A stretch of DNA of 64,000 bases from a virus (IMGVR_UViG_3300027877_000005); one strand, 5' to 3'. Positions 6,268-63,841 are shown, numbered from the stretch's first letter. Translations and numbers: made by a program. Notes: generated by a model not told the origin, from the sequence alone.

Positions 6268-6268
6268 A

Positions 6269-6694: not shown

Positions 6695-6704
6695 GAGGTG
6701 AAAA

Positions 6705-7700: not shown

Positions 7701-8499
7701 TGATTATTTAAAACATAATAATGAAATTTTATCAAGTTTATCTTCAATTGCTTATGACGGACATGTTGGCAGTAGTTCTGTTGTATTTAGTTTTGATTAT
7801 AAACCTATTATTACAGATGTTTGTTTCGCTAGAATGTACAGTCAAATAAAAGAAGCAAAATATAAAAGAGAATTTTCATCTAATTATATTATGAGAATGC
7901 CTTATCTAAAAGAAGATAAAGATGAAACTTTACATGCAAATTATGTAGATTATCCTACATTCTTTAAGAATTTACAAGAATTAATGGAAGATACTTATAA
8001 GATAACTGTATATGATACTGATTATAGAAATATAAAGTTTGTATCAATGGAAAGTAAAATTGAATTACCTTTAGATTTAAATTATTGTTTAACCTTAGTA
8101 TTATATACAATGATTAGGGGTATAGAAGGAGAGAATAATTATTCTTTGAGAAAACGTTTTAGTAAAACAATTTTACTAAGTGGAGATATCAAAGAATATT
8201 TATATACAACTTCTAAAGAAAATAGGGGTTCACATCATAATGTAAGTGATTCTTTAGATAAAATAGCTAACCATAATAATTTACCAGAAGAATTCAAAGA
8301 GAAAATTTTTGAAAATTATGTTAAAACATTAAAGATAACCTTTGGTAAAGATGGATTAATTCATAATCCTGAATACATAAAGTATTTTGAAGGATTTTTT
8401 GATAAAAAACCTAATGGATATGGTAATGCTATGCAAACTAAATCATTTGATTATATAAATCTAACCACAAATAGAATTATACGGGAGAGTTTACAATGA
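7687..8499 (+). CDS. Hypothetical protein (270 aa)
   Basis: Coupled ORF between the ligase and the glutaminase. Confidence 0.75.
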   Translation: MDNFNDYLKHNNEILSSLSSIAYDGHVGSSSVVFSFDYKPIITDVCFARMYSQIKEAKYKREFSSNYIMRMPYLKEDKDETLHANYVDYPTFFKNLQELMEDTYKITVYDTDYRNIKFVSMESKIELPLDLNYCLTLVLYTMIRGIEGENNYSLRKRFSKTILLSGDIKEYLYTTSKENRGSHHNVSDSLDKIANHNNLPEEFKEKIFENYVKTLKITFGKDGLIHNPEYIKYFEGFFDKKPNGYGNAMQTKSFDYINLTTNRIIRESLQ

Positions 8500-23437: not shown

Positions 23438-24775
23438 TTATATCATAAATACTCTTGGTTCGTCATTTCCAGTTGTTGTTGGGTATGTAGGAATTTCTGC
23501 TCCCACAGCCATATACATAATAAGCCTATCTTCTGGTTCTACATAACTGCCCATTTTACAAACAAATCCTGTATTAGTAATTGATTTTAAATCCATAGAG
23601 GATATTAATGTACCACCAACTATATTTGCATATACTACGTCTGTATATTTAGCAGACGCAATATTTAGAGGAAATCCAGATTCAGTTGCTACATAATCAT
23701 TCCAAACCGTTATACATCTTCTTTCTGTAGGAGAAGTAGCTATCCCAAAAGATGTAACACCTTCTTGTGAAAAATTATAAAGACTGTCCTGTTCTTTGGT
23801 ACTAGAAATAAAAATTATTGCGGCTGGTTTGAATCCCAGTTCAACTTCTATATCACCATCATCTGCTCTTGTAGTAAATGACCCAACTTTCCAAAGTGCA
23901 CCCTTTATGACAAGATAGTGAAAATATGAATTTGATGCAGTTAGTCCTTCTCCACTAGGAATAGGATAATGATGTAGTGTAAATCCATTAGTATTAAAGG
24001 ATTCAATATTATCTACAAAATATCTAGGGTATACACCTATTGGTTCATAATTATCAGCCCAAACAGCAGCAGATATTTCTCCAGACCCAGCATGTCCAAA
24101 TGATACATAAGGAGCAGGTTCTCCAAAATCTGCATATCCATGATATACTTGTCCTTGATTTAAATTTTTATCTGCAAATCCAACACTAAAGTCATGGACA
24201 GATGAAGATGAACTATTATAACCATAATCTGCACTAAGCATAAATAATGCATCTGGTTTGAATCCTGGGTCAGCTATACCAGATGAAATATTATGTCGTG
24301 GTCTTCTTTTTGTCTGAGAATATACATCAGTTATATCACTTCCACCAATTGCTAAGTAATTTACTTTCCAAGGTTGTGTAACAGCATCTGAAACGATAAA
24401 TTGAAATCCAGAACCAGTAAATGTTTGAAAATCTACATAACCATCTGCACTTCCAATCCAATTTTCACCACTTGAAGTTATGTAAATAACTCTGGTATTA
24501 AAACTTCCTTTCCAGATTCCATATTGGTCTGGACTACCATTCCATCCAGCGGATTCTACTGCAAATCTACCTATTGTTCTAGTACTAGCTACACCAACTC
24601 CAAAATTATAAGTATCATTAGCCCCATTACTTAATACATTTCCACTAGTTGGAGTTCTTGTATAAAAGAAAATAGCAAATTTGGGTGGGAATCCAACACA
24701 ATCTACCACTGGTTTTGAGCTTACTGCCCAACTTGGGTCTAAACTAAATTCACCAACTTTTGCTAAAATTGCCAT
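23438..24775 (-). CDS. Tail-associated virion protein with three GFxP repeats (paralogue of 62156-63841)
   Basis: Internal repeats VGFPP / PGFKP / LGFKP; lies at the end of the tail module. Confidence 0.7.
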   Translation of the reverse strand: MAILAKVGEFSLDPSWAVSSKPVVDCVGFPPKFAIFFYTRTPTSGNVLSNGANDTYNFGVGVASTRTIGRFAVESAGWNGSPDQYGIWKGSFNTRVIYITSSGENWIGSADGYVDFQTFTGSGFQFIVSDAVTQPWKVNYLAIGGSDITDVYSQTKRRPRHNISSGIADPGFKPDALFMLSADYGYNSSSSSVHDFSVGFADKNLNQGQVYHGYADFGEPAPYVSFGHAGSGEISAAVWADNYEPIGVYPRYFVDNIESFNTNGFTLHHYPIPSGEGLTASNSYFHYLVIKGALWKVGSFTTRADDGDIEVELGFKPAAIIFISSTKEQDSLYNFSQEGVTSFGIATSPTERRCITVWNDYVATESGFPLNIASAKYTDVVYANIVGGTLISSMDLKSITNTGFVCKMGSYVEPEDRLIMYMAVGAEIPTYPTTTGNDEPRVFMI

Positions 24776-46874: not shown

Positions 46875-48429
46875 AAGAATAATTTCCTCCAACTACCCAT
46901 CTACTTTTAGCTAATGGTTTTTGTGCTTTGGAAAACAACATACCTACTACTAACATATAATAGGCAACCATAGCACAAAGCATAGCCGCAGTATTATGGT
47001 CTTCGCCTCTTTTACCTCCCTTTGGGGTCAATGTTTTATAAATAACTTCTCCGATTGGAGTTTTAGTATATGTCATTCTTTCAAGCTCTGTAACTAATTC
47101 TATATCTGTATGGGTATACACAATCTTATGAGAGTTAGTGTACTCTTGTAACAATGTCACACTATGAGGTTTCATTTTTGTTTTTATTTCCTCACCTTCT
47201 GAGTTCTCACCTAAACTAAGCCAAGAACCAAAGGCTACTGGGAATAATCTTTTCGTATAATTTTTATGAAGATATACTTCGTCTTCTAATAAATGTTGTA
47301 CCAATCCTTTTTCATTTCCTGTATCTATACCAATTACTTGAGGTCTATTGAATTTAGTATCTAGATAATCAATAATTTTTTCTTGCGTAGGATAAGCTAC
47401 TTTGTAAAAATTTATTCTTGCATGTTCTCTAATTATACCATTTTTCTCATAAAGTATAATGATTGAAGTGGGTTCCGTGTACCCCAAGTCTACTCCCATT
47501 ATAACTAAATCGTTAGCTGGTACTGGTGGAATAAGAGCCATTCTATTTATTATTTCACTATAAGAATAATCTATTCCAGAAAGACTTATCTTGTAGGTTG
47601 GATAAGTTTCTATTTCCATCAATCTTCTATCAAATACAGCAAATGTAGGAGAACCATGTCTTCCCAAAACCAAGTGAATATAATCTTCACTTTCATTCCC
47701 ACCGTATTGTTTTACATTTCTTTCTTCATCCTGTTCAGTATATCTAGGATTTTCATGAGCAGATGTTCTATGGTGAGAAAACTGGTCATTGACCTCATCT
47801 GCTAAATATAATACACAGTTTTCTCTAAGCCCTGTTGGTACTCCAGACACCCATAATTTATGGCTATCTTCCCACGAATTTAGAACAGGTTGGAGTTCTA
47901 ACCATGTTCCCCAAGGATAGTATCCAGCTTCATCTAGAATGATAATAGGTGTATGTTTACCTACAACATTAACACCTGTACCAGACTGTCCAGCGATAGC
48001 ACACACAAGTTGAGCAGTATTTAATAAAGTTATTGTATAAGTAGACGAATTGATACCACGTTTTGGTTCTATAAAATTCTTCAGAAATAAATTATTTCTT
48101 AAATACTTTATAAGATTATTAAATACTGGTTCAAGATGTGTCTTATTTGGTACTGTATACATTATGTATTCATTAGGGAAAAAATTATTAATCATTACCC
48201 ATAGAATATAATCAGTTAGAGATACTGTCTTCCCTACAGCACGACCACAGCAAAGAGATACATAGTTATTAAAATCTCCTAAGTATTCTTTCTGATAGGG
48301 CGTGTATTCAAAAACTTCTTGTTTATAAGTTAATGTTTCTATATTTCTATAGAACTCTCCGAACATAATTGGATGTCTAATGATTTCATATAGACACCAT
48401 TCTTCAGGAGTTATCTTCTCTTGTAACAT
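46867..48429 (-). CDS. terL: Terminase large subunit
   Basis: Walker A CGRAVGKT, Walker B IILDEA, nuclease MGVDLG and IGIDTG; GGAG RBS before ATG 48429. Confidence 0.9.
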   Translation of the reverse strand: MLQEKITPEEWCLYEIIRHPIMFGEFYRNIETLTYKQEVFEYTPYQKEYLGDFNNYVSLCCGRAVGKTVSLTDYILWVMINNFFPNEYIMYTVPNKTHLEPVFNNLIKYLRNNLFLKNFIEPKRGINSSTYTITLLNTAQLVCAIAGQSGTGVNVVGKHTPIIILDEAGYYPWGTWLELQPVLNSWEDSHKLWVSGVPTGLRENCVLYLADEVNDQFSHHRTSAHENPRYTEQDEERNVKQYGGNESEDYIHLVLGRHGSPTFAVFDRRLMEIETYPTYKISLSGIDYSYSEIINRMALIPPVPANDLVIMGVDLGYTEPTSIIILYEKNGIIREHARINFYKVAYPTQEKIIDYLDTKFNRPQVIGIDTGNEKGLVQHLLEDEVYLHKNYTKRLFPVAFGSWLSLGENSEGEEIKTKMKPHSVTLLQEYTNSHKIVYTHTDIELVTELERMTYTKTPIGEVIYKTLTPKGGKRGEDHNTAAMLCAMVAYYMLVVGMLFSKAQKPLAKSRWVVGGNYSYG

Positions 48430-49090
48430 CAAATGTTGCTCCATTGTAAGGCACAGTGAATTTTTCGTTAGGAGGTAAATCTCCCCACTTAGCAAGATAT
48501 CTTGCCTGTGCTAATCTAAATTTATGATGATGTAAATTTAATTCAAACGGTGTATACTTTTTCATTGTTCCACTATTCTCATGCATTACTTTACATCCTG
48601 CTATATCTTTTATATCATATCCTTTCAATCTCATTCTCCAATGGTAATCATTATCTTCAAAATAAGCATAGTGTGGAGATAGTGTTTCATCAAAATATCC
48701 TACATCATTGATTATTTTTCTAGGAAAACTCATACAGGCAAAGGATGTTGCTCCCTCTGCTGGATAGATTGAAAAGTTTTCATCATACCCTTCCATAAGT
48801 TTTTCAATAGAATCTGGATAGAATTCTATATCATCATTACTTATCAATATATGGTCTTTTACATTATGTAAAAACCAATTCCAACTCATGGCTACCCCCA
48901 AATTATACTTAGCTTTTATTAATGTAATTTTTGACTCAAGTTTTTGTGGTAGCATTTCCATAAATAATTTTGTTCCATTATCAATTATATAATAATTGAT
49001 AGGCTTTAGTGTCCCAGCTTCTGCTGATTCCAGACACTTTACTAATAAATCATACCTGTTTAATGTTGGTATACATAAATTTACTTCCAT
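48404..49090 (-). CDS. Glycosyltransferase family 2 (GT-A)
   Basis: CIPTLNR, IDNG, SNDD (DxD-like), YFEDNDY. Confidence 0.88.
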   Translation of the reverse strand: MEVNLCIPTLNRYDLLVKCLESAEAGTLKPINYYIIDNGTKLFMEMLPQKLESKITLIKAKYNLGVAMSWNWFLHNVKDHILISNDDIEFYPDSIEKLMEGYDENFSIYPAEGATSFACMSFPRKIINDVGYFDETLSPHYAYFEDNDYHWRMRLKGYDIKDIAGCKVMHENSGTMKKYTPFELNLHHHKFRLAQARYLAKWGDLPPNEKFTVPYNGATFDVTREDNS

Positions 49091-49100
49091 ATCACCCTTC

Positions 49101-49838
49101 CTACAATCCTAATATTTTTATTAAATCATTTACTGTTGGGTTTACAGGATAAAAATTAGTATCACTGTAAATCACATGTCTCATATCCCAATGAATCCCA
49201 TCATGTGGGGCAATCTTAGGAATATCAAATCCATTCGCTAGTGCTAATTGAGATGACATTAATCCTACAAATCCTTTAGATTTTGATATCCATGTTGTTG
49301 TTTCTAATAAATCCATTCCTGTTATATCTACACCATATCCTATATCATCATTATCTGCTCCAACAACATAACAAGTAATTGGACAATTAATTATAAAATC
49401 ACAGAATAATTTTTTGAATGATGTTTCTCCTCTTGGTGCTACAATAATATAAGGTTCACTATCAGTTTCAAAATCTGGATATTCGTATTCTACTTTTGCT
49501 GGAGTAGGCAAACCTGTAGATTCCATAATAAAATCTGGTATAGCTTTGTCTGGAACTGTTCTAAATCCCATATGATATGTCATATCATATAAACCTATAT
49601 CTACTGGAACTCTCCAAGGCTGTACTCCCATGTCCATTCTTTCTATTTGATAATTATCTGGCATATAGAATCCATATATATAACTCTGATATCCAAATAA
49701 TCTTTCTAAGGGTTTACAATATTTACTGGTATAAAAATCTGCTAATGCTTCACGCATTTGACAAACCTTTTTAATGGCTGGTAAAGCGTAAATGGCATCT
49801 CCTAATCTTCCTGGATGCGTACATGCTATTTTATTCAT
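49101..49838 (-). CDS. GT9-like glycosyltransferase
   Basis: HPGRLGDAIYALPAI and SKSKGFVGLMSSQLALA match heptosyltransferase-type motifs. Confidence 0.7.
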   Translation of the reverse strand: MNKIACTHPGRLGDAIYALPAIKKVCQMREALADFYTSKYCKPLERLFGYQSYIYGFYMPDNYQIERMDMGVQPWRVPVDIGLYDMTYHMGFRTVPDKAIPDFIMESTGLPTPAKVEYEYPDFETDSEPYIIVAPRGETSFKKLFCDFIINCPITCYVVGADNDDIGYGVDITGMDLLETTTWISKSKGFVGLMSSQLALANGFDIPKIAPHDGIHWDMRHVIYSDTNFYPVNPTVNDLIKILGL

Positions 49839-49847
49839 AACCTCTCC

Positions 49848-51131
49848 TTACATTCCATATAATAAATTTTTTGCAACTTCCCATCTATAATTCTGTATCC
49901 TTTCCTCTTGGTCTTTTGACAATGGTGTATCTAAAAGAATTTTTACTAATTCAATAGGCCATTGATACTTTACTGCAAAGAACCACCATTTGTGTAATCT
50001 ATTTATCTTATCAGCATCTGGAATATTCAATGGAGTATGCTCATAAAATGCCTGTGCTTGTGTATCTTCTGTTATCAATCCTTTATCTAAACAATACTTC
50101 CACAAATCTGTTCTAGGGAATGGTTGAAATATAGAAGCCCACGAATCTGTGGGGTTTAATTTCATATTCATTTCCAAGGTTTTCAAAGCATCTTCCAATG
50201 GATTTTCTACAGGCAACCCAATCATATTCTGTAATCTAACTTTTATTCCACGCTCTTCACAAGTCTTAGTTGCATCACTTATTTGTGAATTTGTAATAAA
50301 CCCACGTCTTAATAATTTTTGTGTTTCTGGTACCGCAGATTCTAATGCTATATTAAGAAATACACAGCCACTATTAGCCAACATATCTATTTTATAACCA
50401 TCAATACTATTTGCTCTAACAGAACCACAATATTGTAGCTTAGTTTGTTTTATTAGTTTACAAAATTCTTCTAGCCATTCATAACTAGCTGCTAAATCAT
50501 CATCATTGAAATAAACTAATTCTAGTCCATAGTCTTTCTTTACTTCTAGAATTTCTTCTATCATCAATTCAGGAGATACTCTTTGGAAGAAATCTTTTTT
50601 CTGGTCTTGGTATAATTTCTTGAATAAGTGATTAAAACAATATGTACAACTATAAAGACAATATCTTCCTGCTATAAATCTTTTCATTCTAGCCTTGCCA
50701 AACTCATCATACTTATATTGAATTTGTCTATAAGGATGAGCCAAAGAATTTACATCTGGAAGGTTCCCTCTGATTAATTTCTTTCCTTGATAAACTCCAT
50801 TTACTATATCAAGAATTACACTCTCTCCTGGGCCTATCACAACATAATCTATGTTACTATTCTTCAATCCAGATTCTGGAAAGAAGGTAAAGTGAGGCCC
50901 ACCCACTACCGAAACAAAATCTCTTTTGCTTTTTAATTCTGCTAATTTATTAAAAAACCATTCATGTTCTCCTGACATAACAGAGCACATGATGTAGTCT
51001 GCTTTTGGTATTACATCTCTATGTGCTTGTACTAAGTCTACATCATGTCCAGCATCTTTCAATATTCTGGCTAAGTACATGATACCTAATTTATCTGTTC
51101 TTAATCTATTCTCCAGAAATACTACTTTCAT
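49848..51131 (-). CDS. Cobalamin-binding radical SAM enzyme (class B methyltransferase-like)
   Basis: B12 domain VVGGPHFT...GPGE; CLYSCTYC (CxxxCxxC); DDD; NMIGLP; start MKVVFLE. Confidence 0.88.
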   Translation of the reverse strand: MKVVFLENRLRTDKLGIMYLARILKDAGHDVDLVQAHRDVIPKADYIMCSVMSGEHEWFFNKLAELKSKRDFVSVVGGPHFTFFPESGLKNSNIDYVVIGPGESVILDIVNGVYQGKKLIRGNLPDVNSLAHPYRQIQYKYDEFGKARMKRFIAGRYCLYSCTYCFNHLFKKLYQDQKKDFFQRVSPELMIEEILEVKKDYGLELVYFNDDDLAASYEWLEEFCKLIKQTKLQYCGSVRANSIDGYKIDMLANSGCVFLNIALESAVPETQKLLRRGFITNSQISDATKTCEERGIKVRLQNMIGLPVENPLEDALKTLEMNMKLNPTDSWASIFQPFPRTDLWKYCLDKGLITEDTQAQAFYEHTPLNIPDADKINRLHKWWFFAVKYQWPIELVKILLDTPLSKDQEERIQNYRWEVAKNLLYGM

Positions 51132-51795
51132 CTGTACCCTTCCTTTCCAACAAGATATTAAAATACGTGTTCCCATCAGGCCCATATATAACTATTTCAT
51201 AGTTTGGTAGATATTCTTTTATAAATTCTAAAACATAACTATCATAATAATTATGAAAGGCTATTAATAAAAATCTAGCTTCTTTTAGTATAGTAGAATT
51301 TTTAATAACGTTGTATTCAGACCCTTCTATATCAATTTTTATTAAGTCTGCTGGAGAGTTTATTACATTTTCTAACTCTTCCAATTTAAATATCTTGTTC
51401 TCATATTTTTCAAATCTAAATCCTTGTGCAGTATAGTGGGTTATTGGTTCAATAGTATACCCCAATGGATTTTTATCCCCAGTTCCAAATACTTCTGATT
51501 CTTTTAGACCATAGTAGATTCCCCAATTTAAAGGTACTATTTTGTATAAATAATCTTCTAGATTCTTTAGTAACATATCAAAATTTTCTGAATCTGGTTC
51601 AAAGCAGTAAATCTTTTCAATGGTTGGAACTTGTAGTAACCACATAGAACTTAGTCCGCTAGATGCCCCAATATCAACCACAGTTTTTATTTCACTTTTT
51701 TTTAATAACTCTATTATCCCTTGCCAAAATGGGTTATACATGAAATCATCATAAACCATTCTATCTATAACTCTATTAACTTTCAAATCTATCAT
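51106..51795 (-). CDS. FkbM-family methyltransferase
   Basis: VDIGASSG, FEPD, KIDIEGSE. Confidence 0.9.
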   Translation of the reverse strand: MIDLKVNRVIDRMVYDDFMYNPFWQGIIELLKKSEIKTVVDIGASSGLSSMWLLQVPTIEKIYCFEPDSENFDMLLKNLEDYLYKIVPLNWGIYYGLKESEVFGTGDKNPLGYTIEPITHYTAQGFRFEKYENKIFKLEELENVINSPADLIKIDIEGSEYNVIKNSTILKEARFLLIAFHNYYDSYVLEFIKEYLPNYEIVIYGPDGNTYFNILLERKGTDESSISGE

Positions 51796-52702
51796 ATAAT
51801 TTCCTGTATTCTATTAATGCGTTATTAGTTTTTTCTGGTAGATATTTTACATATTGTTTAATATTTTGAAGCAAGGTATCTGTTGTCACATATCCAAAAA
51901 CTTCATCTTCTAAATTCTTTTTTATAGACTGTTCATTTCTTTTTTGGTAAACTGTAGGGGGCATGAATAATGGTCTAGTGTCCAAAAGATATTGAGCAAT
52001 ATAACCACCCCAAATATCATCTGACCTCCCAACAAAGGGAAGAACCATGTAATAAGGTAAAGCTTCTCTAGCAATAAAAGTATTCTGGCTGTTGAATGGA
52101 ATAAAATTATTAGATGTAAATGGAACATCTACTTTTAATTCTAAATCCCTTGGCATATGTATCAATCTACAAATAGCATCAACATCAGGGTCTCCATCCC
52201 ACAAATCAGCTTGAAATAAAATTTTTCTCTTTTGTATTCCCCTGTGTACTATTGGTCTAATCTTTGTTAGATATGAAATAGGAAATCCACGGTGCCATAA
52301 TTCACTATGATTAGTTACCTGTAATGGTTCAAAGACATTAATATCTAGACTATCAAAAACATGTACATCTATTTCTTGCCCTACTCTTACATCTTTTCCC
52401 CAATTTTCATAAGGAATATTATCATCATCTATGCTGGCAACAACATCTGCCCCAAGCTCATAGGCATGTATAAAGCCTATATTTCTTCTCATGATACAAT
52501 TCCATCCTATTGCATCACTCAATCTTGGATATAAATCTTCTTGTATATCTGGATGTAAATATGTAGCATTTATGTCTTTATAAGAATTATGTGGAGTTTT
52601 TATATCTCCAACTATAATCATATCCCAACCTTCCATGTGTGAATATTTTAATGTAGCTTCTGTTGGTTCTTGTATCGTTGTTGTTACAATAAATTTTTTC
52701 AT
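51776..52702 (-). CDS. STELLO/DUF288-like putative glycosyltransferase
   Basis: IVTTTIQ, VGDIKTP, RRNIGF, IDDDN, HRGFP, DGDPDVDAI, PFNSQNT, RSDDIWGGY. Confidence 0.8.
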   Translation of the reverse strand: MKKFIVTTTIQEPTEATLKYSHMEGWDMIIVGDIKTPHNSYKDINATYLHPDIQEDLYPRLSDAIGWNCIMRRNIGFIHAYELGADVVASIDDDNIPYENWGKDVRVGQEIDVHVFDSLDINVFEPLQVTNHSELWHRGFPISYLTKIRPIVHRGIQKRKILFQADLWDGDPDVDAICRLIHMPRDLELKVDVPFTSNNFIPFNSQNTFIAREALPYYMVLPFVGRSDDIWGGYIAQYLLDTRPLFMPPTVYQKRNEQSIKKNLEDEVFGYVTTDTLLQNIKQYVKYLPEKTNNALIEYRKLYDRFES

Positions 52703-53544
52703 AGTTCATGTATCTCCAATCCCGCATCAATATGTCCCCAAGTCTCTGGATTTGTAGTTTCTTTCATTGTAAAAGCTTCGTCAATATTATTTATTTTCCC
52801 GCTACCCCCAAATCCTGCATCATGTCCAATATGCCAAATGGGTAGACTCCAATCAACCGCTATGTTATATCCTACTAAAGTTGCTTTCATTTGAACATTA
52901 CTGTCCATGTATGCCCTTCCAGTAAATCTTTCCTCAAATCCACGCATGGCATACCAAATATCTTTATGTGCAATTTGAAAATCTCCACAATTACTTACCA
53001 AAGAAAATCTATCATTCCAATGTACACTTGTAGGAGGTTGTTGAGAATATCTGGACTCAAGCTGTTCTAATGCTGTTATATAAATATCTGGTCTTGTTCT
53101 GTCTCCCAAAGGTCTTAAATCATATAAAGAAATTGACCTCATACCTGTGGTAAAAAATGTACTAGTATTTATTACTCTTTCAAGATGTTTTCTTTGTGGA
53201 GGAATAATATCTATATTTGCTGAGATTAAAAAATCAGTACTAAGTCTTCGTAATCCTACATTTCTTGCTTGAGTTTCACATACTGCTTGTGCTTGTGGGT
53301 CATTCCATGTCCATTCCCTAGCTTGTTCTTGTGTTACCCTTACCCAACGTATTTTTTCTTTATGTACTAAATCATCTTTTATTTCTTCAATCATAGTTGG
53401 CTTGTCATTATCTGTATTCCAATCTACATATACAATTTCATCCAATACTTCAGCCATTGAATTAAGACAATAGGTAGCTCTTTCTAATAATAAATTTCCA
53501 TAATTATCATTTCTACTAATTATAGATGCTCCATACGTTGTCAT
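52699..53544 (-). CDS. Putative GT-A fold glycosyltransferase
   Basis: SRNDNYG, YVDWN, RNVGLRR, ANIDII, GDFQ, GRAYMDSN. Confidence 0.7.
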   Translation of the reverse strand: MTTYGASIISRNDNYGNLLLERATYCLNSMAEVLDEIVYVDWNTDNDKPTMIEEIKDDLVHKEKIRWVRVTQEQAREWTWNDPQAQAVCETQARNVGLRRLSTDFLISANIDIIPPQRKHLERVINTSTFFTTGMRSISLYDLRPLGDRTRPDIYITALEQLESRYSQQPPTSVHWNDRFSLVSNCGDFQIAHKDIWYAMRGFEERFTGRAYMDSNVQMKATLVGYNIAVDWSLPIWHIGHDAGFGGSGKINNIDEAFTMKETTNPETWGHIDAGLEIHEL

Positions 53545-54527
53545 ACACACTTCTCCGTTAAGTCATAACGCACCTGTTGTTCTATCCAATCATAAGTTCT
53601 TTCTAATCCTGACTCTAATGGAATGACAGGTTCCCAATGTAAAATTTCTTTTACTTTAGTATTATCTGAATTTCTTCCTCTAACTCCCTGAGGCCCGTCA
53701 AGATTATAAACCTTATTTATATCTATTTTTGCTTTAGTAGCAATTATATCTGCTAATTCATCAATTGTTATCATCCTATCACTGCCTATATTCAAAGGTT
53801 CGTGATAATCACTTAACATTAATTTATGAATTCCTCTAACAATATCATCTATATAACAAAATGAACGTGTTTGTTTCCCATCCCCCCAAATTTCAATATC
53901 TGATTCTTGCATAAATTTTGCTGTAGCTATCTTTCTACATAAAGCAGCAGGAGCTTTTTCTCTACCACCTGTCCATGTTCCTTGAGGCCCATATACATTG
54001 TGGAATCTAGCTATGTATGTCTGAGTTGCTGTTTCTCTACCAATGTATTGACAAAACTTTTCCATTGTCAATTTCTCCCAACCATAAGCATCTTGGGGTT
54101 GAGCAGGATAAGCATCAGATTCTTTTAGTGGTACAACATCTGGTTTATCTTGTAAAAATTCTGGATATACACATGCTGAAGAAGAAAAGAAATATTTCTT
54201 TACTCCATTATCTACTGCACTTTGTAGTGTATTTAGATTTATTAAAAGATTGTTATGCAAAATTAGAGAATGATTTCTGGAAATAAATCCCATCCCGCCC
54301 ATGTCTGCTGCTAATCCAAAAACCCAATCTATATTTTCTGTTGCCCATTGTGCATTGTGTATGTCAAGCAAAGATACTTTGTGAAATTCATTTGCAGAAG
54401 TTCTTTCATATTTTGGATACTTAGTATCTACTCCACGAACCCAATAGCCCAATTGAGTTAAATAATTTGTAAGGTGGTATCCAATAAATCCACCCGCACC
54501 TGTTACTAATACTCTTTCTGTTCTCAT
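53541..54527 (-). CDS. NAD-dependent epimerase, GDP-mannose 3,5-epimerase-like
   Basis: GAGGFIG, LAADMGGMGFI, SSACVYP, YGWEK (YxxxK), GREKAPAALCRK, GVRGRNSDN. Confidence 0.9.
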   Translation of the reverse strand: MRTERVLVTGAGGFIGYHLTNYLTQLGYWVRGVDTKYPKYERTSANEFHKVSLLDIHNAQWATENIDWVFGLAADMGGMGFISRNHSLILHNNLLINLNTLQSAVDNGVKKYFFSSSACVYPEFLQDKPDVVPLKESDAYPAQPQDAYGWEKLTMEKFCQYIGRETATQTYIARFHNVYGPQGTWTGGREKAPAALCRKIATAKFMQESDIEIWGDGKQTRSFCYIDDIVRGIHKLMLSDYHEPLNIGSDRMITIDELADIIATKAKIDINKVYNLDGPQGVRGRNSDNTKVKEILHWEPVIPLESGLERTYDWIEQQVRYDLTEKCV

Positions 54528-54784
54528 TTTTTCCCTTCCTTATCAAAATAAGTGTAATAAGTTTTTGATACAGTTGAAATGTCTTCATCTCCTAGTAATG
54601 AATCAATTGCTTTGATTAGAGCAGACCGTCTAGCATTCATGATTTGTGCTCTTTCTGCTGCTTCTAATCTTTTTTCATTTGATAAATCTTTATTCATAAT
54701 ATCTTCTTGAGCAAACCAACACCGCACAGAAGTTGTAATTAATTCATCAATTATTATCCCAATACTCTTTCTAGATATGTCCAT
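54524..54784 (-). CDS. Small helical protein (DUF4254-like, tentative)
   Basis: SIG..IDEL...W..QE...N.RR..LI..ID pattern seen in glycan loci. Confidence 0.5.
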   Translation of the reverse strand: MDISRKSIGIIIDELITTSVRCWFAQEDIMNKDLSNEKRLEAAERAQIMNARRSALIKAIDSLLGDEDISTVSKTYYTYFDKEGKK

Positions 54785-56019
54785 TTTACTACCTCCTGTC
54801 CTTCATCACCTTCCATGTAGTAAATAACAGGCTCTGGTAATGGTACAATAAATGCTCCCCCATACTTCAAGAACTTAATATTTCTAGCTATAAAATCATC
54901 TATGAAATGCCAAGGTAATACAAATAGCATATCTGGATGTTCTTTAAATACTTCATCTTCCGAAGCTATAGGAATATTAGAAGAGATAGTATACTTTCCA
55001 AACTTATCTGGATTTACATCTGCAATAATTGGAATCAACTTTTTAGTTATCCCAAAGTATTGAAGTAAAGTATTTCCTTTTGTTGATGCACCCATTCCAT
55101 AAATTCTTATGCCGGCAAATTCTGCTCTAGTTAGAAAATCTAACACAGTTCTTTTTACTTTATTTATTCTTTCCGAAAATGATTTCATTGGGTCATCAAA
55201 ACTATCTAGATATGCCCTTTCATCAGCTAAAGAATTTAAAACGCTATCTTGGGTACAGAAGTAATCATTTTTGCAAGCAAATACTCTTATACTTCCACCA
55301 TTTACTTTGTTATAAGAAACCTTAAAAACTTTCAATCCATGTTTATCTAGTAGATTTACGATGTCAGTTAGTTTATAATATTCTAAGTGTTCGTGACAAA
55401 TATTATCAAAAGCATTTATTCTCAGCATTGAAATCAAATCTGTAAATTGAATTACAAATATGCCATCATCTGCTAAAACATTAGCTATATCTTCTACAAA
55501 TTTATTTGGGTCTGGTAAATCGTAGAACATGGCAATAGCAGTAACTACCCTTGCTTTATTCCAATAATAAGAATCTTTACTAAAATAATCATTAACAAAG
55601 AAACTACAGTTTTTAGTAGCCTTCTCTGCCAAGTTTAGTGCTGGGTCATATCCCAATTTGAATGTAATTTTATTCTTGTATAGTGTAAACATAACACCAT
55701 CATTACATCCAATATCTAATAATAAATCTTCATCATTAATCTTTATAGTATTCTCAATTTCAGTTACAATATCCTGCAAAGATTTAACCATTGATGGATT
55801 GATAGCTGATTGATAGAAATAAGTTCTATACATTTCATCTAAATTAACTGTGTGTTTAAGCTGAACAAGACCACAAGATTTGCATTCCATTAATACTAAC
55901 GGAACTGCTTCTCCTTCAGTCTTGTTCACAAAGTTAGATGGATATATACTTCCTAAATTAAGAACCTCTCTCATACTTTCCCCACAAATCCTACATACAT
56001 ACTGTTCCTTGTGTGCCAT
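54754..56019 (-). CDS. NDP-hexose C-methyltransferase (TylCIII/EryBIII/NovU family)
   Basis: CRICG...CKSCGLVQL Zn site, DIGCNDG, CHEHLEYY, NGGSIRV, GASTKGNTLL, LPWHF. Confidence 0.9.
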   Translation of the reverse strand: MAHKEQYVCRICGESMREVLNLGSIYPSNFVNKTEGEAVPLVLMECKSCGLVQLKHTVNLDEMYRTYFYQSAINPSMVKSLQDIVTEIENTIKINDEDLLLDIGCNDGVMFTLYKNKITFKLGYDPALNLAEKATKNCSFFVNDYFSKDSYYWNKARVVTAIAMFYDLPDPNKFVEDIANVLADDGIFVIQFTDLISMLRINAFDNICHEHLEYYKLTDIVNLLDKHGLKVFKVSYNKVNGGSIRVFACKNDYFCTQDSVLNSLADERAYLDSFDDPMKSFSERINKVKRTVLDFLTRAEFAGIRIYGMGASTKGNTLLQYFGITKKLIPIIADVNPDKFGKYTISSNIPIASEDEVFKEHPDMLFVLPWHFIDDFIARNIKFLKYGGAFIVPLPEPVIYYMEGDEGQEVVKWTYLERVLG

Positions 56020-56033
56020 ATTTCACCTCTCCG

Positions 56034-56363
56034 TTATTGTTCTTTTGGTGTAGTTACTGTAAATCCAAACTCCGCTGAGTGGAATCTTTGTGTTTCATTT
56101 TCTAATAATACTTGGACTAAATAATACCCCGCTGATGATAAAAGTCCAGATGGTAAAGAAGCTTGTAAATAAGATTCACCTGATGCAACCATCACTGCAT
56201 TTATATTAACTACTATTCCATCTGGTTTCTTAATGATAAATTGTTTAGTTGTGTAAGGACTCAAATCTGCGGGAGATGTTTGACCTGTCAATTCATCATA
56301 TTCTTTTACTAAAACTTCTAGGGTATGTCCATAATCTGTTTTGAATATTATGGTATGACTCAT
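56034..56363 (-). CDS. BppU N-terminal-like adaptor domain protein
   Basis: DLS...IKKPDG...AGYYLVQV...F.V pattern. Confidence 0.55.
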   Translation of the reverse strand: MSHTIIFKTDYGHTLEVLVKEYDELTGQTSPADLSPYTTKQFIIKKPDGIVVNINAVMVASGESYLQASLPSGLLSSAGYYLVQVLLENETQRFHSAEFGFTVTTPKEQ

Positions 56364-59300
56364 AATTTTACAATTCCTTTTATATATTTGTTTATAATTA
56401 CTATATAACTAGTTCCAGTTTCGATATTAGCATCAAAAGCTAGATGGTTATTCAATTCTGCTTCAGACATAATAAACTTATTTATATCTGTTTCAAATAC
56501 TGCATGAGTATTTATTACAGTTTCACATTCAATCTTGTGAGCGTCAGGTGGTGCTATACCAGCTACATAAGCTTTTGTAGAACTGCTTACAGCCTCAGCA
56601 CCATAAACATACGCATGGATATAAGAAATATTAGCGGTATGTCCTTGTACGAAGGCACTTATTCTAGAAGTAGTGCTTGAAATTCCTACCACATAAGCAG
56701 ATTTATTACTGCTTACTATTACTCCACCATGTACATATGCAGGAATTTGTGAAACTGCTGTACTTTGACCAGCTACATAAGCCCCTATATTAGAACTTAT
56801 TACAGCTTTACCTGAAGTGTAAGCTGGTACATTACTACTTGTCTTTATTATACCATAAGTGTACGCATTTGTCAAGGATGAAGCGATAGATTTTCCTGCT
56901 AAATATGCAGAAATTCTGGAATTTGTAGAGATTTTACCAGAAGTATAGGCAAATTTAGAAGTTTTTTCTACAATTCCACCAGCTACATATGCTGATTTAG
57001 AAGAGCTTGTATCTGCTTTACCATGAGTATAAGCACTAATAGAACTTTCATTACCAGCATATCCACTAACAAAGGCATGGATTGAAGAAGAACTAGTTGC
57101 TATACCTGTTGTAAATGCTGGTATACTATCTGCAATATCTTGTCTACCGTGTACATATGCTGGAATAGAATCTACAGCACCAGCCTGTCCAGATACATAT
57201 GCATGTTGTGATGTTATATCGTAACTTTGTCCTTTTGTAAAGGCATGGATAGAACTGGTATCAACAGAATATCCATTTACAATGGATAGAACTGGTATCA
57301 ACAGAATATCCATTTACAAAGGCGTGTATAGAACCTTGTAATGTAGAAGTACCTGATGTATATGCTGATGTAGAGTCTACAGCATCTTGCTTACCTTTTG
57401 TATATGCAGATATATTATCTTGGGCTGTAGAAATTCCTGCTACATATGCTGACTTGGTTGCTTCAGCAGTTGTTTTACCAGCTACAAATGCAGAATGAGA
57501 ATCGCTTAATGTTTCTTGTCCACGAACATATGCATGTACATTTGAAGATACAGATATATATCCTAGTACTGGTATTCCAACTGTAACCCATTCAATTTCA
57601 AATCCATATGCCCCTTGTACAAAAGCATGAATTAGACTATTAGCATAGTCTAAACCTTTTGTATAAGCAGGAATGGATGCAATTCCTGGTGCAAACCCAA
57701 AGGTGTATGCTGGTTGTGAATCACTTGCTATATCTTGACCAGAAGTAAATGCAGACTTATTTGCTATTCCACTATATTGACCTCTAGTGTAAGCATTTAT
57801 ATTTCCAACTTGTGATGCTTGCCCCTTTACAAAAGCTAATTGATTGTCACTTGCATCAAATTTACCTTGTACAAAAGCTTGTTGATTATCACTTATAATC
57901 AATCCACCAGAAGTGTATGCAGTGTGAGAACCACTTGCTATACTTGAACCTCTAGTATATGCAATCTGGTTATCTGATACTACTAATCCACCAGCCACAT
58001 AAGCGGTCTTAGAAGCACTTGTAGATATTTGTCCACGTACATATGCTGATTGATTATCACTTACGATTAGTCCACCACTTACATATGCATAGATAGATGA
58101 TATTTCAGTACTTCTACCCGCAGTATAAGCATGGATATTAGCTATGCCAGGAGAGAATCCACTTACATAAGCGTGGATAGATGCTGTTGCACCTGATATA
58201 CCACCTACGTAGGCATTTATAGAATCTGTTGTTATGATTCCTCCTGCTACATAGGCATGTAGTAAAGAAATCATAGTGTCTTTACCAGACACGTAAGCTT
58301 TTATAGAACCTGTAGCACCATACTGACCACTTGTAAATGCAGACTTAGATGCAACGAATGTACTTACACCACTTGTAAATGCATTTTGATTATCAGATGT
58401 AGAAATCTGACCTTTGGTGAAAGCAAATTGTGAATCGCTTGTATCTGATGAACCTCTTACATATGCAAATTTAGAAGCAGATGCAAAGATTGGAACACCT
58501 TCTACAAACGCAGAATGTGAATCCGATACTAAGCTTTTACCATGTGTGTATGCAGATTGTGAATCTGAGGATGTAGATAATCCTTTGACATATGCATGAA
58601 TTACACTACTTGAGCTACTTATACCACTTGTATAAGCTAGTTGATTGTCTATACCATATGCTTGCCCTTTAGTGTAAGCATAGATTGAATGTGCTATTAT
58701 GCTCTTACCACTTGTGTAAGCATTGATAGAGTCCGAAGCTATGATTGCAGTACCTTCTACATAGGCATTCTTATTTGCAGAAGCAATTGATTGACCTTTT
58801 ACATACGCTGGTTGGTTATCAACAATTGAATTTTTACCAGCTACAAAAGCATAGATTGAATCTAAGGCTGTATCTTTACCAGATACAAATGCATTTATAG
58901 AATCACTTTGGCTTGCTGAACCTTTTACGAAAGCATGGATATTAGATGATACTGATTGTTGGGTTATTACAGGTAATCCTACAGTAATCCATTCAATCTC
59001 AAAACCATAAGCTCCTTCTACAAATGCTGTCTTCGATGCAATAACTTTTTCTACACCAAAAGTATAAGCTGTTATAGAATCATTTACAGAAGTTTGACCT
59101 CTTACATATGCTGATTTATATCCTGATAAACTGGTTTGTCCTCTTACATATGCCCCTTGGTTATCACTTGCAAAAGATTGTCCTCTAGTGTAGGCATAAA
59201 TTGAATTACTTCCTATACTCTGTCCCTTAGTATAGGCTGATTGATTATCACTTGCTGATTGTTCTGATGGGAATCCTTCTGTATAAGCGTGTATTAAATT

Positions 59301-62147
59301 GCTTGTAGAAATTTGTCCTTTTGTATATGCAAGTTGATTATCTGATGCTACACTTTGACCACTAGTGTAAGCTAATTGATTATCTGATGCACTACTTCTT
59401 CCAGAAACATAAGCGTGTATGAGTGTTGAAGTACTAATCTTACCACTAGTATATGCTAATTGATTGTCAACTATAGAAGTTTGACCACTAGTATAAGCCG
59501 ATTGTGAATCTGCTATACCACTAGCACCTTTTGTATAGGCTGATTTATTAGCAGAAGTTAATGATTGACCGTTGGTGAAAGCTGGTTGATTATCAACTGT
59601 TGAGGTTTGCCCTTTGGTATAAGCAGCCTGATTATCTGTAATACCAGTAGCACCTCTAGTGTAGGCTGGTTGATTATCTAAAGTAGATAATTGACCTCTG
59701 GTATATGCTAATTGATTATCTGATGTACTATCCTTACCTTGTGTAAATGCACCTTTAGAAGCTGAAGCACCATAAGAACCATTTGTGTAAGCATGTTTAT
59801 TGCTACTAGATGATAGAACACCGTTTGTGTAGGCATGTTTACTACTTAGTACCCATGGTACCCATTCAACTATAATATTAGCATTTGTTGTAAGTATTTT
59901 TTCTGTGGATTTAGTTTCAACTATTATGTTAGCAGTAGTAACATCTAGTTTGTCTGATACTTTATCTTCTACTAATATACTAACTTCAGTAGTTCTTATA
60001 CCATGTGCAGATGTAAACGCATGTATCCAGCTTGTCTTAGAGCCTTCTACACCAGAAGTATATGCATGGATTAAAGAAGATTTTGTTCCAGATTGCCCTT
60101 CAGTATAAGCTGGTTGATTGTCGGTAGCTTGAGGAGCACCTTTAGTATATGCAGACTGACTATCCGAAGCTGGTATCCATTCTCCCTCCATAGCTGTATA
60201 AGCATGGATAGAACTTCTAACAAAAGTTTCTTGTAATATTAGATAGTTATAATAAAGATTTCCAGTATCATCTGTAAATACATAGCTAATTCTACCATAT
60301 TCATTTTCAAAATGGTAGGCATATTCTGGAGCAATAGAAGTAAATGTTCCTGTATCAAGAGTTGCTTCTGGATACCAATCTCCACTATCAGCATATTTTG
60401 TATAAATTATATCTCTACTAGTATTGTCAATATAGAAAAGATGTCTATATCCACGTTTATATGCTGCCCCAGGCCAATAACTCCAAGCATTAATGTAGCC
60501 ATTTGCAGTACCAATTCTGGTAAGATTTTCATCCATATAATATGGAGGGCCTGACATACCATGTGTTCTATAAATATAAGTATTACCATCAGGAGAGGCA
60601 ACTATTGATTTTTCTCTGTGTATATATGCCGATGATGGATAAGTTACTTCATCTGCCCACACACCAGTATCTAAATTTCTAGTTCTTGTTGCAGTATAAT
60701 AAGAAGAATCATTATATCCAACTATACATTTGTTTTGGTAAACAAGCATCCCAGGATAGTGCCAGTTTTTAGAAACATTTGCTGGTACATTTTCTGGAGA
60801 AAGCCAAGACCCACTAACTTTATTAGTGTATCTAATTATTCTATAACCACTAACTTGGTCAGTGTAAATTACATGTGGTTTTTCATTAGCATCAAGACTG
60901 ATAAAACATTGTCTGTATGTTGGAAGACCTGTAAGATTAGCTGCCTCTTCCCATGTTCCCCAAGAATCATTAGAAGTATCAAGTATGTTATAGGCTATGT
61001 CTCTTGTAGCTAAAGCATTAGCAGAACTTAGGACATGAATTTTATCATGTGCATCAATAGCAATATTGAAATAAGCAATTGTAGAACTACCATGAATAGT
61101 TGTTACTGAAACCGAAGAAAGTGCAGTCCAAGTTGCACCATCGTTTGAAGATTTATCTATTTGAATATTATTACTATCAGATGATTTAGAGAATACATAT
61201 CTAACCCCCATCTTGGTTGTAACAACATATGCTGGGGCGGCTGATGATGCACGTATTAATGATTTAGTACCTTTTACATAAGCAGACTTAGAAGAAGATG
61301 TACTAGAAGTCCCAGCTACATAAGCAGATTGATTATCAATTGCTTTTCCTTCCTCATATCCATTTACATAAGCATGTTTGCTTGAAGATGCCGAACTACC
61401 AGTATAAGATTGTATTTGTAAGGAGACAAAAGGTATTGCAGGGTCAACTGGATAAGGCCCTTGAATAAAAGCATGTTTACTTGATGATGCTACTTGTGCT
61501 CCATATACATATCCAGATTGATTATCTGAACCTGAATATGCATCAAAGAAAGATGCAGCAATAATACGCCAGTAATCAGCACCAGCGTTTACAAAGTTAA
61601 CTGCAATTGTTCCAGCAGAACCACTATCTAAATCATATTCTGATGCAAATGTCCAGTTACCAGGGTCTGAGCTATGGACTAGAGTATAGTTAGCACCTTG
61701 TGTAGATGCAGTCCTGTAGTCATCTCCTTGTGCAGCTACTATTAATAAATTGGGAAGAGTAGTTACAATATTTACAGATGGATTTGCTGTACTACCACCA
61801 CCACTAATTTGACTATGATATACAACTAGGTCTTTAGTAGTAGTATATGATGATGGATTTAATGCTATAGAATCGCCATCTGCGTTTGGAAGACTAAAAT
61901 TATATGTACCATTATCTGGATTTATTAAATACCATAGTTCAATAGCACAATCATTTCCTGTCCCAGCCTCTGCTACTAAGGTCATCTCCTTTCCGTTATA
62001 AGTTGGTGGAGTAACAGTAGTTCTTCCAGCTACATCTTCAATGTAAACAGAAAGAATTAGTAAATCTCCGTTACATGTATAACTGTAAGTAACAGGATTT
62101 GAAGTGCTATATGTACTTAGTGCTTTATTGTCTAACGAAAAAGACAT
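56360..62147 (-). CDS. Giant Ser-rich 14-aa-repeat virion protein (~1916 aa), split by a 37-bp duplication
   Basis: Repeat xxSx[NS][QIK]xA[YF][TV]xGxx in both ORFs; Asp-box SNDGATW in a propeller-like domain; removing one duplicate gives 1917 codons. Confidence 0.8.
57245..57318. repeat. Exact 37-bp tandem duplication
   Basis: 57245-57281 identical to 57282-57318. Confidence 0.95.
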
Positions 62148-62155
62148 TTAAACTC

Positions 62156-63841
62156 CTAAAAGGTAGCGGCTATAATTGTTACTCTTATTCTAAGTTCTGA
62201 ATAATCAGTAATACTTGATATTTCTCCTGCGGTCAATTGTTTATTAAATTCATGAACTACATCATCTGCTACTGTTTGAGTATCAGAAGTAATTACTGTA
62301 GAACCTTGTCTAAGCTCACATTTTAAAGTTACAGAAGTTGCACCTGCTTTTCTTTTTGCTTTCCAACTTAAGATATGAACACCACTTTTTGTACCAAATA
62401 AACGCTCTAATCTGACCTCAAAATAATCTCCTGTTAGAGCATTATCAAACCATGCATAAGTAGTATCATCTGAATCTGCTAAATTTGGATATAGTGTATA
62501 ACCATCATTTTGATTTATCCAACTATCTCTATAATCATCTGCATATGGAACAGCAACATATCCACTTCCACATACATATGCGTGTATTGAAGAAGATTTT
62601 GGTGAATCACCAATAGCTAAATAGGTTACGAAACTTGGGTGTGGGTCTGGAATATCCATAGCTACGGTAAATCCATCATTGTCCATAGATACCAAATCCA
62701 TTTGTCCCTTTAATACATTGTCAGCTAAAAACAAGTATACTGCCTCATGATTAATCCCCATCATTTCTTCTGTAGGAACTGTCCAATCTTCAGAAGAATA
62801 TGCATAGACTCTACGTTGTGTTTCTGTGGCAGCACCAACACTGAGTCTATCATCGGAAAAGAATCCGCTTACTAATGTATTTCTACTTTGGAATTGATTA
62901 TTACTTATAAAAAGAACTGCGGCTGGTTTAAATCCAACACCAGATACTACAATATTTTCAGTATCTGTTCTAGTCATAAACATACCTGGATGAAAATTTG
63001 GGCCTTTCAGAGCTAAATAATATATATAATTTGCATCATCATATTCACCTAATGTATAGTGACTTAATCTTAATCCACTTGGAAGCCACTCTTTGAAAGA
63101 TACTGTATCTTTCATTACTCTACGTGAGTAATAAGAATCTGTAGATGATGCTATTTCCCCACTAACAGCATAAGTTAATGCACTATTCAAGGCAGTACCT
63201 CCATGATGAGTACCGCCGGCAACTTCGTATTGATTTACATATGGGTTAGTTACAAACCCAATACTCATATCTCCATAGTTATTATTTGTAGCTGGGTCGG
63301 ATGTAAGCATTCCACGTACAACAATTACTCCATCTGGTTGAAAACCAGTAGTAATATCTTTATCTACCCTTTGATATTGCGTAGTTGGTAATGCAGAATA
63401 TCCTAGATATACACCACCGGATGCTATTGTATTTTTTATTGCTAGATAATGTATACGGGAAGCAGTTGAAAACTGGTCAGCTATAACAAATTTAAATCCA
63501 TCACTAGTCATGCCATCAAAATCAGCTATACCATTTAAACCATTCCAGTAAGTATATAAATAAAAAATACTATCTGAACGGTTCCACCCTACCATTGGTT
63601 CTGATGTGGTACCATCTTCATAAAGATGTCCTACATTAAATCTACTTCCACTTGCCGTAGCAATCCCAAAAACAAACGATGTATTTCCTGGACTTATACC
63701 ACTTGCTGTAGATGTGGAATTTCCTCCCCAAATAATTACAGCGGCTGGTGTAAAACCTACACCACTAACAGTTAAAATTTGTCCTGGAGTAAAAGCAGTT
63801 GGTATCGAAAACGAACCAAGATTTATACTATTATTTGCCAT
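62156..63841 (-). CDS. Virion protein with three GFxP repeats, one 14-aa repeat unit and a C-terminal beta domain
   Basis: VGFTP / TGFQP / VGFKP repeats align with 23438-24775; contains SSSIHAYVCG. Confidence 0.7.
   Translation of the reverse strand: MANNSINLGSFSIPTAFTPGQILTVSGVGFTPAAVIIWGGNSTSTASGISPGNTSFVFGIATASGSRFNVGHLYEDGTTSEPMVGWNRSDSIFYLYTYWNGLNGIADFDGMTSDGFKFVIADQFSTASRIHYLAIKNTIASGGVYLGYSALPTTQYQRVDKDITTGFQPDGVIVVRGMLTSDPATNNNYGDMSIGFVTNPYVNQYEVAGGTHHGGTALNSALTYAVSGEIASSTDSYYSRRVMKDTVSFKEWLPSGLRLSHYTLGEYDDANYIYYLALKGPNFHPGMFMTRTDTENIVVSGVGFKPAAVLFISNNQFQSRNTLVSGFFSDDRLSVGAATETQRRVYAYSSEDWTVPTEEMMGINHEAVYLFLADNVLKGQMDLVSMDNDGFTVAMDIPDPHPSFVTYLAIGDSPKSSSIHAYVCGSGYVAVPYADDYRDSWINQNDGYTLYPNLADSDDTTYAWFDNALTGDYFEVRLERLFGTKSGVHILSWKAKRKAGATSVTLKCELRQGSTVITSDTQTVADDVVHEFNKQLTAGEISSITDYSELRIRVTIIAATF

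Follow-up and report, generated by a model that had tools for sequence, protein, structure and literature searches.

Introduction

A 64,000-nt stretch of DNA from a virus (IMGVR_UViG_3300027877_000005), referred to in its full length as the window, carries on its minus strand, between positions 56360 and 62147, a long array of a 14-residue repeat. The question raised by this locus is what kind of protein is encoded there, and what role such a protein may play for the phage. The sequence-only reading of the window had described a single giant Ser-rich protein of about 1,900 aa, supposed to be a whisker and the main glycan carrier of the virus, in analogy to bacterial serine-rich repeat glycoproteins (SRRPs). 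The present analysis leads to a different answer. With a probability of roughly 50%, the locus represents a single late gene of the phage, some 1,916 codons long, for a fast-evolving and probably sugar-binding virion fibre or adhesin, in which a long all-beta stalk is combined with globular modules.

Results

The 14-residue repeat

The repeat unit, with the consensus A-[YF]-[TV]-x-G-x4-S-[DS]-[SN]-x-x, was found to fill most of the region 56360-62147. When the two frames of the locus were joined (see below), the protein contained 81 strict A-[YF]-[TVL]-x-G units, 71 of which are spaced exactly 14 aa, and 86 units as judged by a position-specific score. These numbers are far above chance and agree with the earlier estimate of about 90 copies. 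The main array, recognised by motif count, unit score and DNA pattern, is located in frame A (57282-59834, minus strand; aa 772-1622; about 58 units). The DNA pattern, set as four successive units at 42-nt spacing, gave 54 matches in the window, all within this gene; shuffled sequence would give 0.00.

The profile of the 71 regular units showed Ala at position 1, Tyr or Phe at position 2 and Gly at position 5 in 71/71 cases each, and Thr or Val at position 3 in 70/71, in support of the fixed A-[YF]-[TV]-x-G core noticed before. Outside this core, there is a preference for Gln or Lys at position 6 and for Ser at position 10; positions 11, 12 and 13 prefer Asp or Ser, Ser or Asn, and Ile, Gln or Lys, respectively. 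The Ser content is 14.7% for the protein as a whole and 17.8% within the units, and the term 'Ser-rich' can be kept only in the sense of a moderate enrichment. On average, two units are identical in 37% of their amino acids and in 48% of their nucleotides, and the invariant Ala is specified by 4 synonymous codons and the invariant Gly by 3. The low DNA identity and the varied codons at the invariant Ala and Gly indicate selection on the protein, and the units are old.

Break of the gene by a 37-bp duplication

By translation with table 11, two open reading frames (ORFs) were identified on the minus strand of this locus. The upstream frame A (57261-62147; P0001, 1,628 aa) starts from an ATG with AGGAG 5 nt ahead of it, and the downstream frame B (56360-57313; P0002, 317 aa) encodes 19 further units, as identified by unit score, and the C-terminal module. 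Because no Shine-Dalgarno sequence is present upstream of its ATG, frame B was taken as the displaced 3' part of the same gene. DNA comparison showed that the two ORFs are separated by a perfect tandem duplication of a 37-bp unit (57245-57318), as a result of which VNGYSVDTSSIH is encoded both at the end of P0001 and at the start of P0002. The duplicated unit is 5 nt less than one 42-nt repeat unit, and since 37 is a multiple of three plus one, the reading frame is shifted by +1. After removal of one 37-bp copy in silico, a single open frame of 1,916 aa was obtained, and relatives align over the duplication point in one frame. The duplication is the sole recent DNA-level event in the array.

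The split protein is contained letter for letter in the ESM Atlas, which indicates that the break is present in the deposited assembly; it could stem from a genuine mutation, from a minority variant or from faulty assembly. Programmed frameshifting over the duplication was considered and rejected, since it needs a +1 shift, no relative carries the duplication, and no hint of a shift site was found. The protein of about 1,900 aa described from sequence alone, in which the break was overlooked, is thus not encoded by the window as assembled, and is restored only by deletion of one copy.

A family of modular repeat proteins

Neither P0001 nor P0002 gave any match in Pfam, PHROG, NCBIfam or, by sequence at E<=1, PDB. 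A tblastn search of P0001 against 50,697 phage records gave no match, P0002 gave no usable match in the ESM Atlas, and the literature search yielded no description of a 14-residue repeat of this type. The repeat itself defines a large family. By phmmer scan with query residues 760-1628 against 1.84 billion cluster representatives, 337 clusters were detected at E<=1e-3 and 46 at E<=1e-30, and at least 114 members with at least 10 units were present among the matches listed. As a member of the family we count a protein with at least 10 [A]-[YF]-[TVLI]-x-G units at 14-residue spacing and with globular inserts, a description that covers the window protein with its 86 units.

The occurrence of the repeat was followed with a degenerate DNA pattern, which recovered members where a relative search with a single protein as query gave no confirmed relative. 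In IMG/VR this pattern detected 46 stretches, of which about 22 are true members; for one genome per bacterial or archaeal species, 0 true members were found among the 120 matches listed. All of the five longer contexts looked up were phage, carrying terminase, portal, tape-measure or tail-tube genes. The family thus looks restricted to viruses: as far as these searches reach, this unnamed repeat family, with a minimum of 337 clusters, has turned up in phage-like DNA alone.

The members consist of repeat arrays broken by 2-4 globular segments, mostly unannotated. Recognisable inserts are LamG (P0004, P0006, P0017), CBM96/Disaggregatase repeat (P0004), DNRLRE (P0037) and a pectate-lyase-like beta-helix (P0010), and the domains of some relatives gave a weak match to chondroitinase B. 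Pfam matches to Myosin_N, OB_RNR_1st, Tli4_N and Macro_2 on relatives were discarded as repeat artefacts, as no stretch passes alone. The unit also varies among relatives, with the 14-residue period kept, into such forms as I-Y-L-x-G, A-K-[IV]-S-G and L-F-I-x-G, and the Ser/Asp positions are replaced by Ala, Val, Asn or Lys in P0007 and other relatives.

A different 14-residue repeat, N-Y-[VI]-x-P-E-[FM]-N-L-D-x-x-x-x, is encoded by Lak megaphages, as seen in the Prevotella phage Lak-A1 (L172, MK250016.1; about 5900-6800), where it contains in-frame TAG; weak tblastn matches (E 4e-8) connect it with the repeat region of P0003. Here too position 2 is Tyr, position 3 is beta-branched and position 5 is a turn residue, in this case Pro, and the Lak repeat may be a distant variant or a case of convergence.

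Conserved gene order and rapid divergence

Seven close relatives of the window were found among the IMG/VR contigs (L047, L042, L039/L034, L024, L036, L045/L051 and L048). The gene order is kept in 7/7: a homologue of the companion gene up561, the repeat gene or genes, the small partner gene s109, a C-methyltransferase gene, a DUF4254 gene, variable genes, a GT2 glycosyltransferase (GT) gene, and the terminase and portal genes. Identities to the window were 79-86% for TerL, 78-81% for portal, 63-74% for the C-methyltransferase, 62-66% for GT2 and 50-61% for s109, and went down to about 25-35% for the repeat protein, the length of which ranges from 841 to >1,629 aa among the close relatives. 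The pattern is that of a plastic host-interaction gene which evolves rapidly within conserved surroundings. In three contigs (L024, 5807-6706; L039, 1762-2661; L045, 5910-6809), a 299-aa gene with two tandem domains of about 150 aa stands between two repeat genes; no family match was obtained for it.

In a second lineage (lineage B: L001, L003, L004, L005, L008, L016 and L033), one or two repeat genes are inserted between portal-side genes and capsid genes. In L004, the repeat genes are followed by a 151-aa gene, a scaffold-like gene and the genes for major head protein, adaptor, tail tube and tape measure. In L002, downstream of a member of 1,977 aa come a 101-aa gene and the genes for small and large terminase, in that order. 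The repeat genes thus adjoin packaging or head genes in all three lineages.

Globular domains and inserts

The N-terminal globular domain (aa 1-215; 61503-62147, minus strand, as are all parts of the protein), which starts with the polar sequence MSFSLDNKALSTYSTS…, is all-beta in a low-confidence AlphaFold2 model. It shows 41% identity to the N-terminus of a 623-aa ORF in the relative L034. When used alone as query in a word search, it gave no stand-alone sequence homologues, and its nearest clusters in the ESM Atlas are viral hypothetical proteins.

The region from aa ~303 to 660 (60168-61241), delimited by alignment and common to P0003 and P0005, had been described as an Asp-box propeller. 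In BNR/Asp-box propellers, which have six or seven blades, the box S-x-D-x-G-x-T-W recurs once in each blade. The region contains one near-canonical Asp-box, SSNDGATW, which is one residue short of this pattern, and three degenerate [ST]-G-x-W sites, SGSW, TGVW and SGDW. BNR-named clusters, at 0.83-0.85, are its nearest named neighbours in the ESM Atlas, and profile search of PDB gave sialidase chains at E ~0.4. By Foldseek with a model of mean pLDDT (predicted local distance difference test) 40, propeller glycosidases, lyases and lectins (4irt, 5muk, PL24/25, PLL) were detected at E 1e-8 to 1e-5. No Pfam match, BNR included, was obtained even at E 5. These leads, each weak, point to a probable sialidase-like beta-propeller, and the claim made before holds in this reduced form.

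Other interruptions of the array were present as predicted. A short beta-rich insert (aa ~709-771; 59835-60023), seen in the translation, carries two copies of xANIIVE at aa ~738 and ~756. Motif search located both copies of GAYGFEIEW[IV]TVG[LI]P, the first as a 17-residue insertion GAYGFEIEWITVGLP… at aa 1045-1071 (58935-59015), and the second as GAYGFEIEWVTVGIP… at aa 1512-1538 (57534-57614), where the pLDDT of the AlphaFold2 model is 26-38. The GAYGFEIEW insertion recurs in five relatives (P0004, P0006, P0007, P0047 and P0118).

The array ends, also as predicted, in a distinct non-repeat module. This conserved C-terminal module, the last ~56-57 aa (56363-56530), was recognised by alignment as H-x-I-E-C-x-T-V-I-N-T … I-V-K-[IL]; internally it shows a period of some 10 residues. 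In L047, L036, L039, L042, L051, L048 and L024, 26-28 of 62 residues are identical, and the module is thus better kept than the repeat body; it was found also in P0007.

Structure prediction

The conserved Gly turn together with the polar S-D-N turn suggests a hairpin-type repeat. By AlphaFold2 with a 20-row alignment of the repeat block, one strand per unit was predicted, at a mean pLDDT of 51, and Foldseek with this poor model detected nothing at E<=0.001. When three copies of a 227-aa block were submitted to trimer prediction, again with a 20-row alignment, the score was 0.00 with pLDDT ~44, a result that is neutral on oligomerisation. From general geometry, at about 1-1.3 nm per unit, we infer a stalk of about 80-110 nm. 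The fibre proposed from sequence alone can thus be accepted in outline as a long, all-beta, fibre-like late phage protein; neither a beta-solenoid nor a beta-spiral, the forms specified for it, could be derived from a model with a mean pLDDT of 51.

Neighbouring genes

The companion gene up561 (62156-63841, minus strand; 561 aa by translation) is located 8 nt upstream of the repeat gene. Its product is composed of two tandem N-terminal domains, a single 14-residue unit (…SSSIHAYVCG…) and a C-terminal domain. Residues 7-411 show 28% identity (over 439 aa, E 3e-25) to a 445-aa gene at 23438-24775 on the minus strand, the last gene of the tail module, just before the endolysin. The end of the tail module before endolysin is the usual position of the receptor-binding protein. 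This phage thus has two copies of a putative receptor-binding body, one in up561 and one in the 445-aa gene. Residues 377-556 of up561 are 33% identical to the C-terminus of an L004 repeat protein, and homologues of up561 precede the repeat gene in L024, L045 and L048.

On the other side, the start of s109 (56034-56363, minus strand; 109 aa) overlaps the repeat-gene stop by 4 nt. As judged from homology and synteny, s109 is always directly after the repeat gene in the seven close relatives, and ORFs of 101-111 aa follow the repeat gene also in L001, L002, L023, L025 and the P0007 contig. A BppU-like gene had been claimed for this position. The 109-aa gene is indeed there; its match to BppU_N (Pfam PF10651; E 0.0037) stays below the gathering score (17.4 bits vs the cut-off of 23.1), and its matches to PHROG tail families are likewise sub-threshold (E 0.003-0.004).

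Within the array, a perfect sigma-70 consensus with extended -10 element (TTGACA, 17 nt, TG-TATAAT) was found at 56847-56875 on the minus strand, one of three 12/12 sites in the window. It is located 512 nt before the start of s109, and the same distance is kept in L036 and L048, with surrounding DNA 64% identical; the site is not kept in L047, L042, L039, L024 and L051. It may act as a promoter within the array, from which s109 and the sugar island are expressed. The island (48404-56019) and its neighbours contain genes for the C-methyltransferase, DUF4254, an epimerase, an FkbM methyltransferase, a B12 radical-SAM enzyme, GT2 and terminase, and the reported position of the repeat gene directly upstream of a glycan cluster was thus confirmed. 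The repeat gene shares its orientation with the terminase, portal and tail genes and is closely spaced with them; no terminator was detected in intergenic DNA.

As for the window as a whole, the plus-strand operon at 1-12 kb has about 26% G+C with positive GC skew, followed by 39-46% at 12-18 kb; the minus-strand structural genes at 18-64 kb have about 31-39%, a sharp change from 1-12 kb. The longest terminase ORF begins with TTG at 48495 and shares 92 nt (48404-48495) with the GT2 gene, and the true terminase start is probably located further downstream. No small terminase gene was recognised beside this ORF.

Discussion

On the reading that we prefer, about 86 diverged units, each with Ala1, an aromatic residue at position 2, a beta-branched residue at 3, Gly5 and a polar S-[DS]-[SN] turn at 10-12, would build a long thin all-beta stalk, probably oligomeric. 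The stalk would space out the globular modules, namely the N-terminal beta domain, the probable sialidase-like propeller and the short beta inserts, and the C-terminal module, about 56 residues long, is probably a partner of the translationally coupled s109 in assembly or anchoring. Exposed, most likely, on the virion surface, the protein would bind reversibly to polysaccharide of the host surface or the environment, and it diversifies rapidly as do other host-recognition proteins. This reading is supported by the old and protein-selected repeat, the phage-like contexts of the family, the adhesin-like modular make-up of its members, the position of the gene in a late structural operon, the kept gene order with fast divergence of the repeat protein, the paralogy of up561 to the last tail-module gene and the location among head genes in L004. 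The joined protein has neither signal peptide nor membrane segment (no apolar run of >=15 residues anywhere), which fits cytoplasmic assembly.

Several observations weigh against this reading. The AlphaFold2 models are of low confidence, with mean pLDDT of 51 for the repeat block and 40 for aa 1-700; there is no homology to any characterised fibre, and the virion location is a matter of deduction. A recognisable carbohydrate-related domain was found in only about 5 of the 23 members scanned. Furthermore, the positional clues are in conflict. Neighbouring packaging and head genes hint at a head or neck fibre; a head-module position is present in L004, and in the window the gene is upstream of the sugar island and terminase. 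On the other hand, the paralogy of up561 to a tail-module gene and the BppU_N and tail-PHROG hints of s109 point to the tail tip. Finally, the repeat gene is frame-broken in this window, and the product, if the break is real, would be without 21 units and the conserved C-terminal module.

The last point raises the possibility that the gene is dead here, that is, the duplication is real in the dominant population, the product is a truncated 1,628-aa protein or none, and the fibre is dispensable. This proposal concerns the state of this copy and is compatible with any functional reading, and was graded apart from them. A perfect, frame-shifting duplication that stands in the deposited assembly, with a downstream frame devoid of a ribosome-binding site and with a locus plastic enough for relatives to differ widely in length and repeat-gene number, would speak for a dead gene. 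Against it, the 3' frame is free of stops over 317 codons and retains all unit invariants and the conserved C-terminal module. The event must thus have happened very recently, be limited to a minority variant, or be an artefact of assembly or sequencing; L048 and L045 have intact ORFs. We consider a dead gene somewhat unlikely. Much less credit is given to the proposal that the product is not a part of the virion at all, and is instead a lysis-released or intracellular protein, such as a matrix-binding, polysaccharide-degrading, internal or ejection protein. The location of the gene outside the tail-tip module and the enzyme-like domains of some relatives (the pectate-lyase-like beta-helix and the weak chondroitinase B match) could be so explained, but the protein has no signal peptide, its gene belongs to a late structural operon and in lineage B is located between head genes, and lectin-type modules would make no sense inside a capsid. 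As phage depolymerase domains are usually part of virion spikes, even the enzyme-like inserts are in keeping with a virion protein, and a non-virion role appears very unlikely.

The glycan question needs a separate treatment. SRRPs of Gram-positive bacteria, such as Fap1, GspB and SraP, are encoded beside dedicated glycosyltransferases. The window protein resembles them in its great length, in its repeats with a globular binding region set among them, and in the sugar-modifying enzymes encoded next to it. The four defining features of SRRPs are nevertheless all missing: a long signal peptide for accessory Sec export (the N-terminus is polar, with no apolar run of >=15 residues), Ser-x dipeptide tracts of very high Ser content (no (S-x)5 run, longest Ser run 5, Ser about 15-18%), a C-terminal LPXTG anchor (no LPxTG motif in the protein), and adjacent secA2/secY2/asp and gtfA/gtfB genes (no Sec components among the neighbours). 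Unlike SRRPs, the protein has invariant structural residues, and these are Ala, Tyr/Phe and Gly, not Ser, which argues for a fold rather than a mucin-like tract. The sequence-only reading thus recognised a real repeat protein, misdescribed as unbroken; its fibre part is plausible, and its analogy to SRRPs fails.

Without this analogy, the array could still be meant mainly for O-glycosylation by the adjacent methylated-sugar island, to give a sugar-coated whisker that shields or disguises the particle. Such a proposal is compatible with the fibre role, and only the carrying of glycan as main function sets it apart. The linkage on which it is based was confirmed: the repeat gene, s109, the C-methyltransferase and GT2 go together in the window and in 7/7 close relatives. 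As to whether the repeat occurs mainly in phages without GT genes, a doubt raised along with the original proposal, the result was mixed. Besides the window lineage, genes of the GT1 and GT2 families lie 4-9 kb upstream in L001, but for L002, L003, L004 and L005 no GT family is among the Pfam matches on record within about 10 kb. A protein of about 480-500 aa, with a class I SAM methyltransferase as C-terminal half, is encoded nearby in L001, L003, L004 and L005. In the PHROG comparison, made for the L004 member only (7015-8499), the N-terminal half matched only PHROGs, one of them annotated as glycosyltransferase (E 1.4e-6), a lead only for a glycosyltransferase-like half. The Ser+Thr content of units was 23-28% in GT-linked members and 18-20% in members without GT on record nearby, a suggestive trend from few, related samples. 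Against a main function as glycan carrier are the conserved residues, which are not Ser or Thr, the replacement of Ser/Asp positions in P0007 and others, and P0010, the units of which contain 7% Ser with no GT family on record within about 10 kb; moreover, the island could equally modify capsid or tail proteins. Glycosylation of the repeat protein by the adjacent island is possible, but glycan carriage as its main function is unlikely.

Freeman and co-workers are said to have described, in 2023, virion O-glycosylation of mycobacteriophages. Glycosylated fibrils are found in giant viruses (PMC9614988). In common with these systems, the virus sugar synthesis and transfer genes stand here beside structural genes, and a surface fibre is a plausible acceptor; in contrast to them, the acceptor is only a candidate and the link between repeat family and GT is not general. 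The far-reaching combination, in which the unit is a virus-only unsolved fibrous fold and in the window lineage also a dedicated methylated-sugar acceptor, giving a glycan-coated whisker of about 100 nm with embedded lectin- or glycosidase-like domains, is distinctly unlikely.

Returning to the fibre reading, the nearest models are viral fibres of short beta repeats. The adenovirus fibre shaft and reovirus sigma1 are triple beta-spirals, intertwined homotrimers with a repeat of about 15 residues in which Gly or Pro stands in a tight turn and apolar positions alternate, and T4 gp5C is a triple-stranded beta-helix. The window protein may be similar in its units of about 14-15 residues with an invariant residue (here Gly) at a putative turn and apolar and polar positions that would alternate; it is predicted all-beta, and would carry globular binding domains on a stalk. 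It differs in its period of 14 instead of 15, in its 86 units, far more than in those shafts, and in the location of globular domains within the array and not only at the tip; no match to a solved fibre was found by sequence (PDB, E<=1) or by Foldseek with the poor model (E<=0.001). For short-beta-repeat fibrous adhesins, van Raaij 1999 is cited in a passage of PMC12796354. Phage head fibres and decoration adhesins include phi29 gp8.5, T4 Hoc and the capsid fibres of 7-7-1 and phiCbK (PMC12796354, PMC7602432). An accessory surface protein for reversible first contact, as proposed here, would resemble these, and the lineage B gene in L004 stands in the head module, between portal and scaffold/capsid genes. 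The window protein shows no homology to these fibres; the phi29 one forms a supercoil of helix-turn-helix type, and Hoc consists of Ig domains. A head location would be putative, and the neighbour up561 points to the tail tip.

The main value of this locus is a large, unnamed and apparently virus-only repeat family of modular fibre-like proteins. With hundreds of clusters, no entry in Pfam, PHROGs or NCBIfam, no solved relative and resistance to AlphaFold2, the family marks a clear gap in the structural annotation of phages. Once it is named, the giant 'hypothetical proteins' of many uncultured phages become readable as fibre or adhesin genes, and their inserted domains become candidate host-glycan binders. 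The linkage to the sugar island in one lineage offers a concrete pair of acceptor candidate and enzymes for virion glycosylation outside mycobacteriophages, and a glycan-coated whisker, if true, would be a viral counterpart of mucins and serine-rich adhesins.

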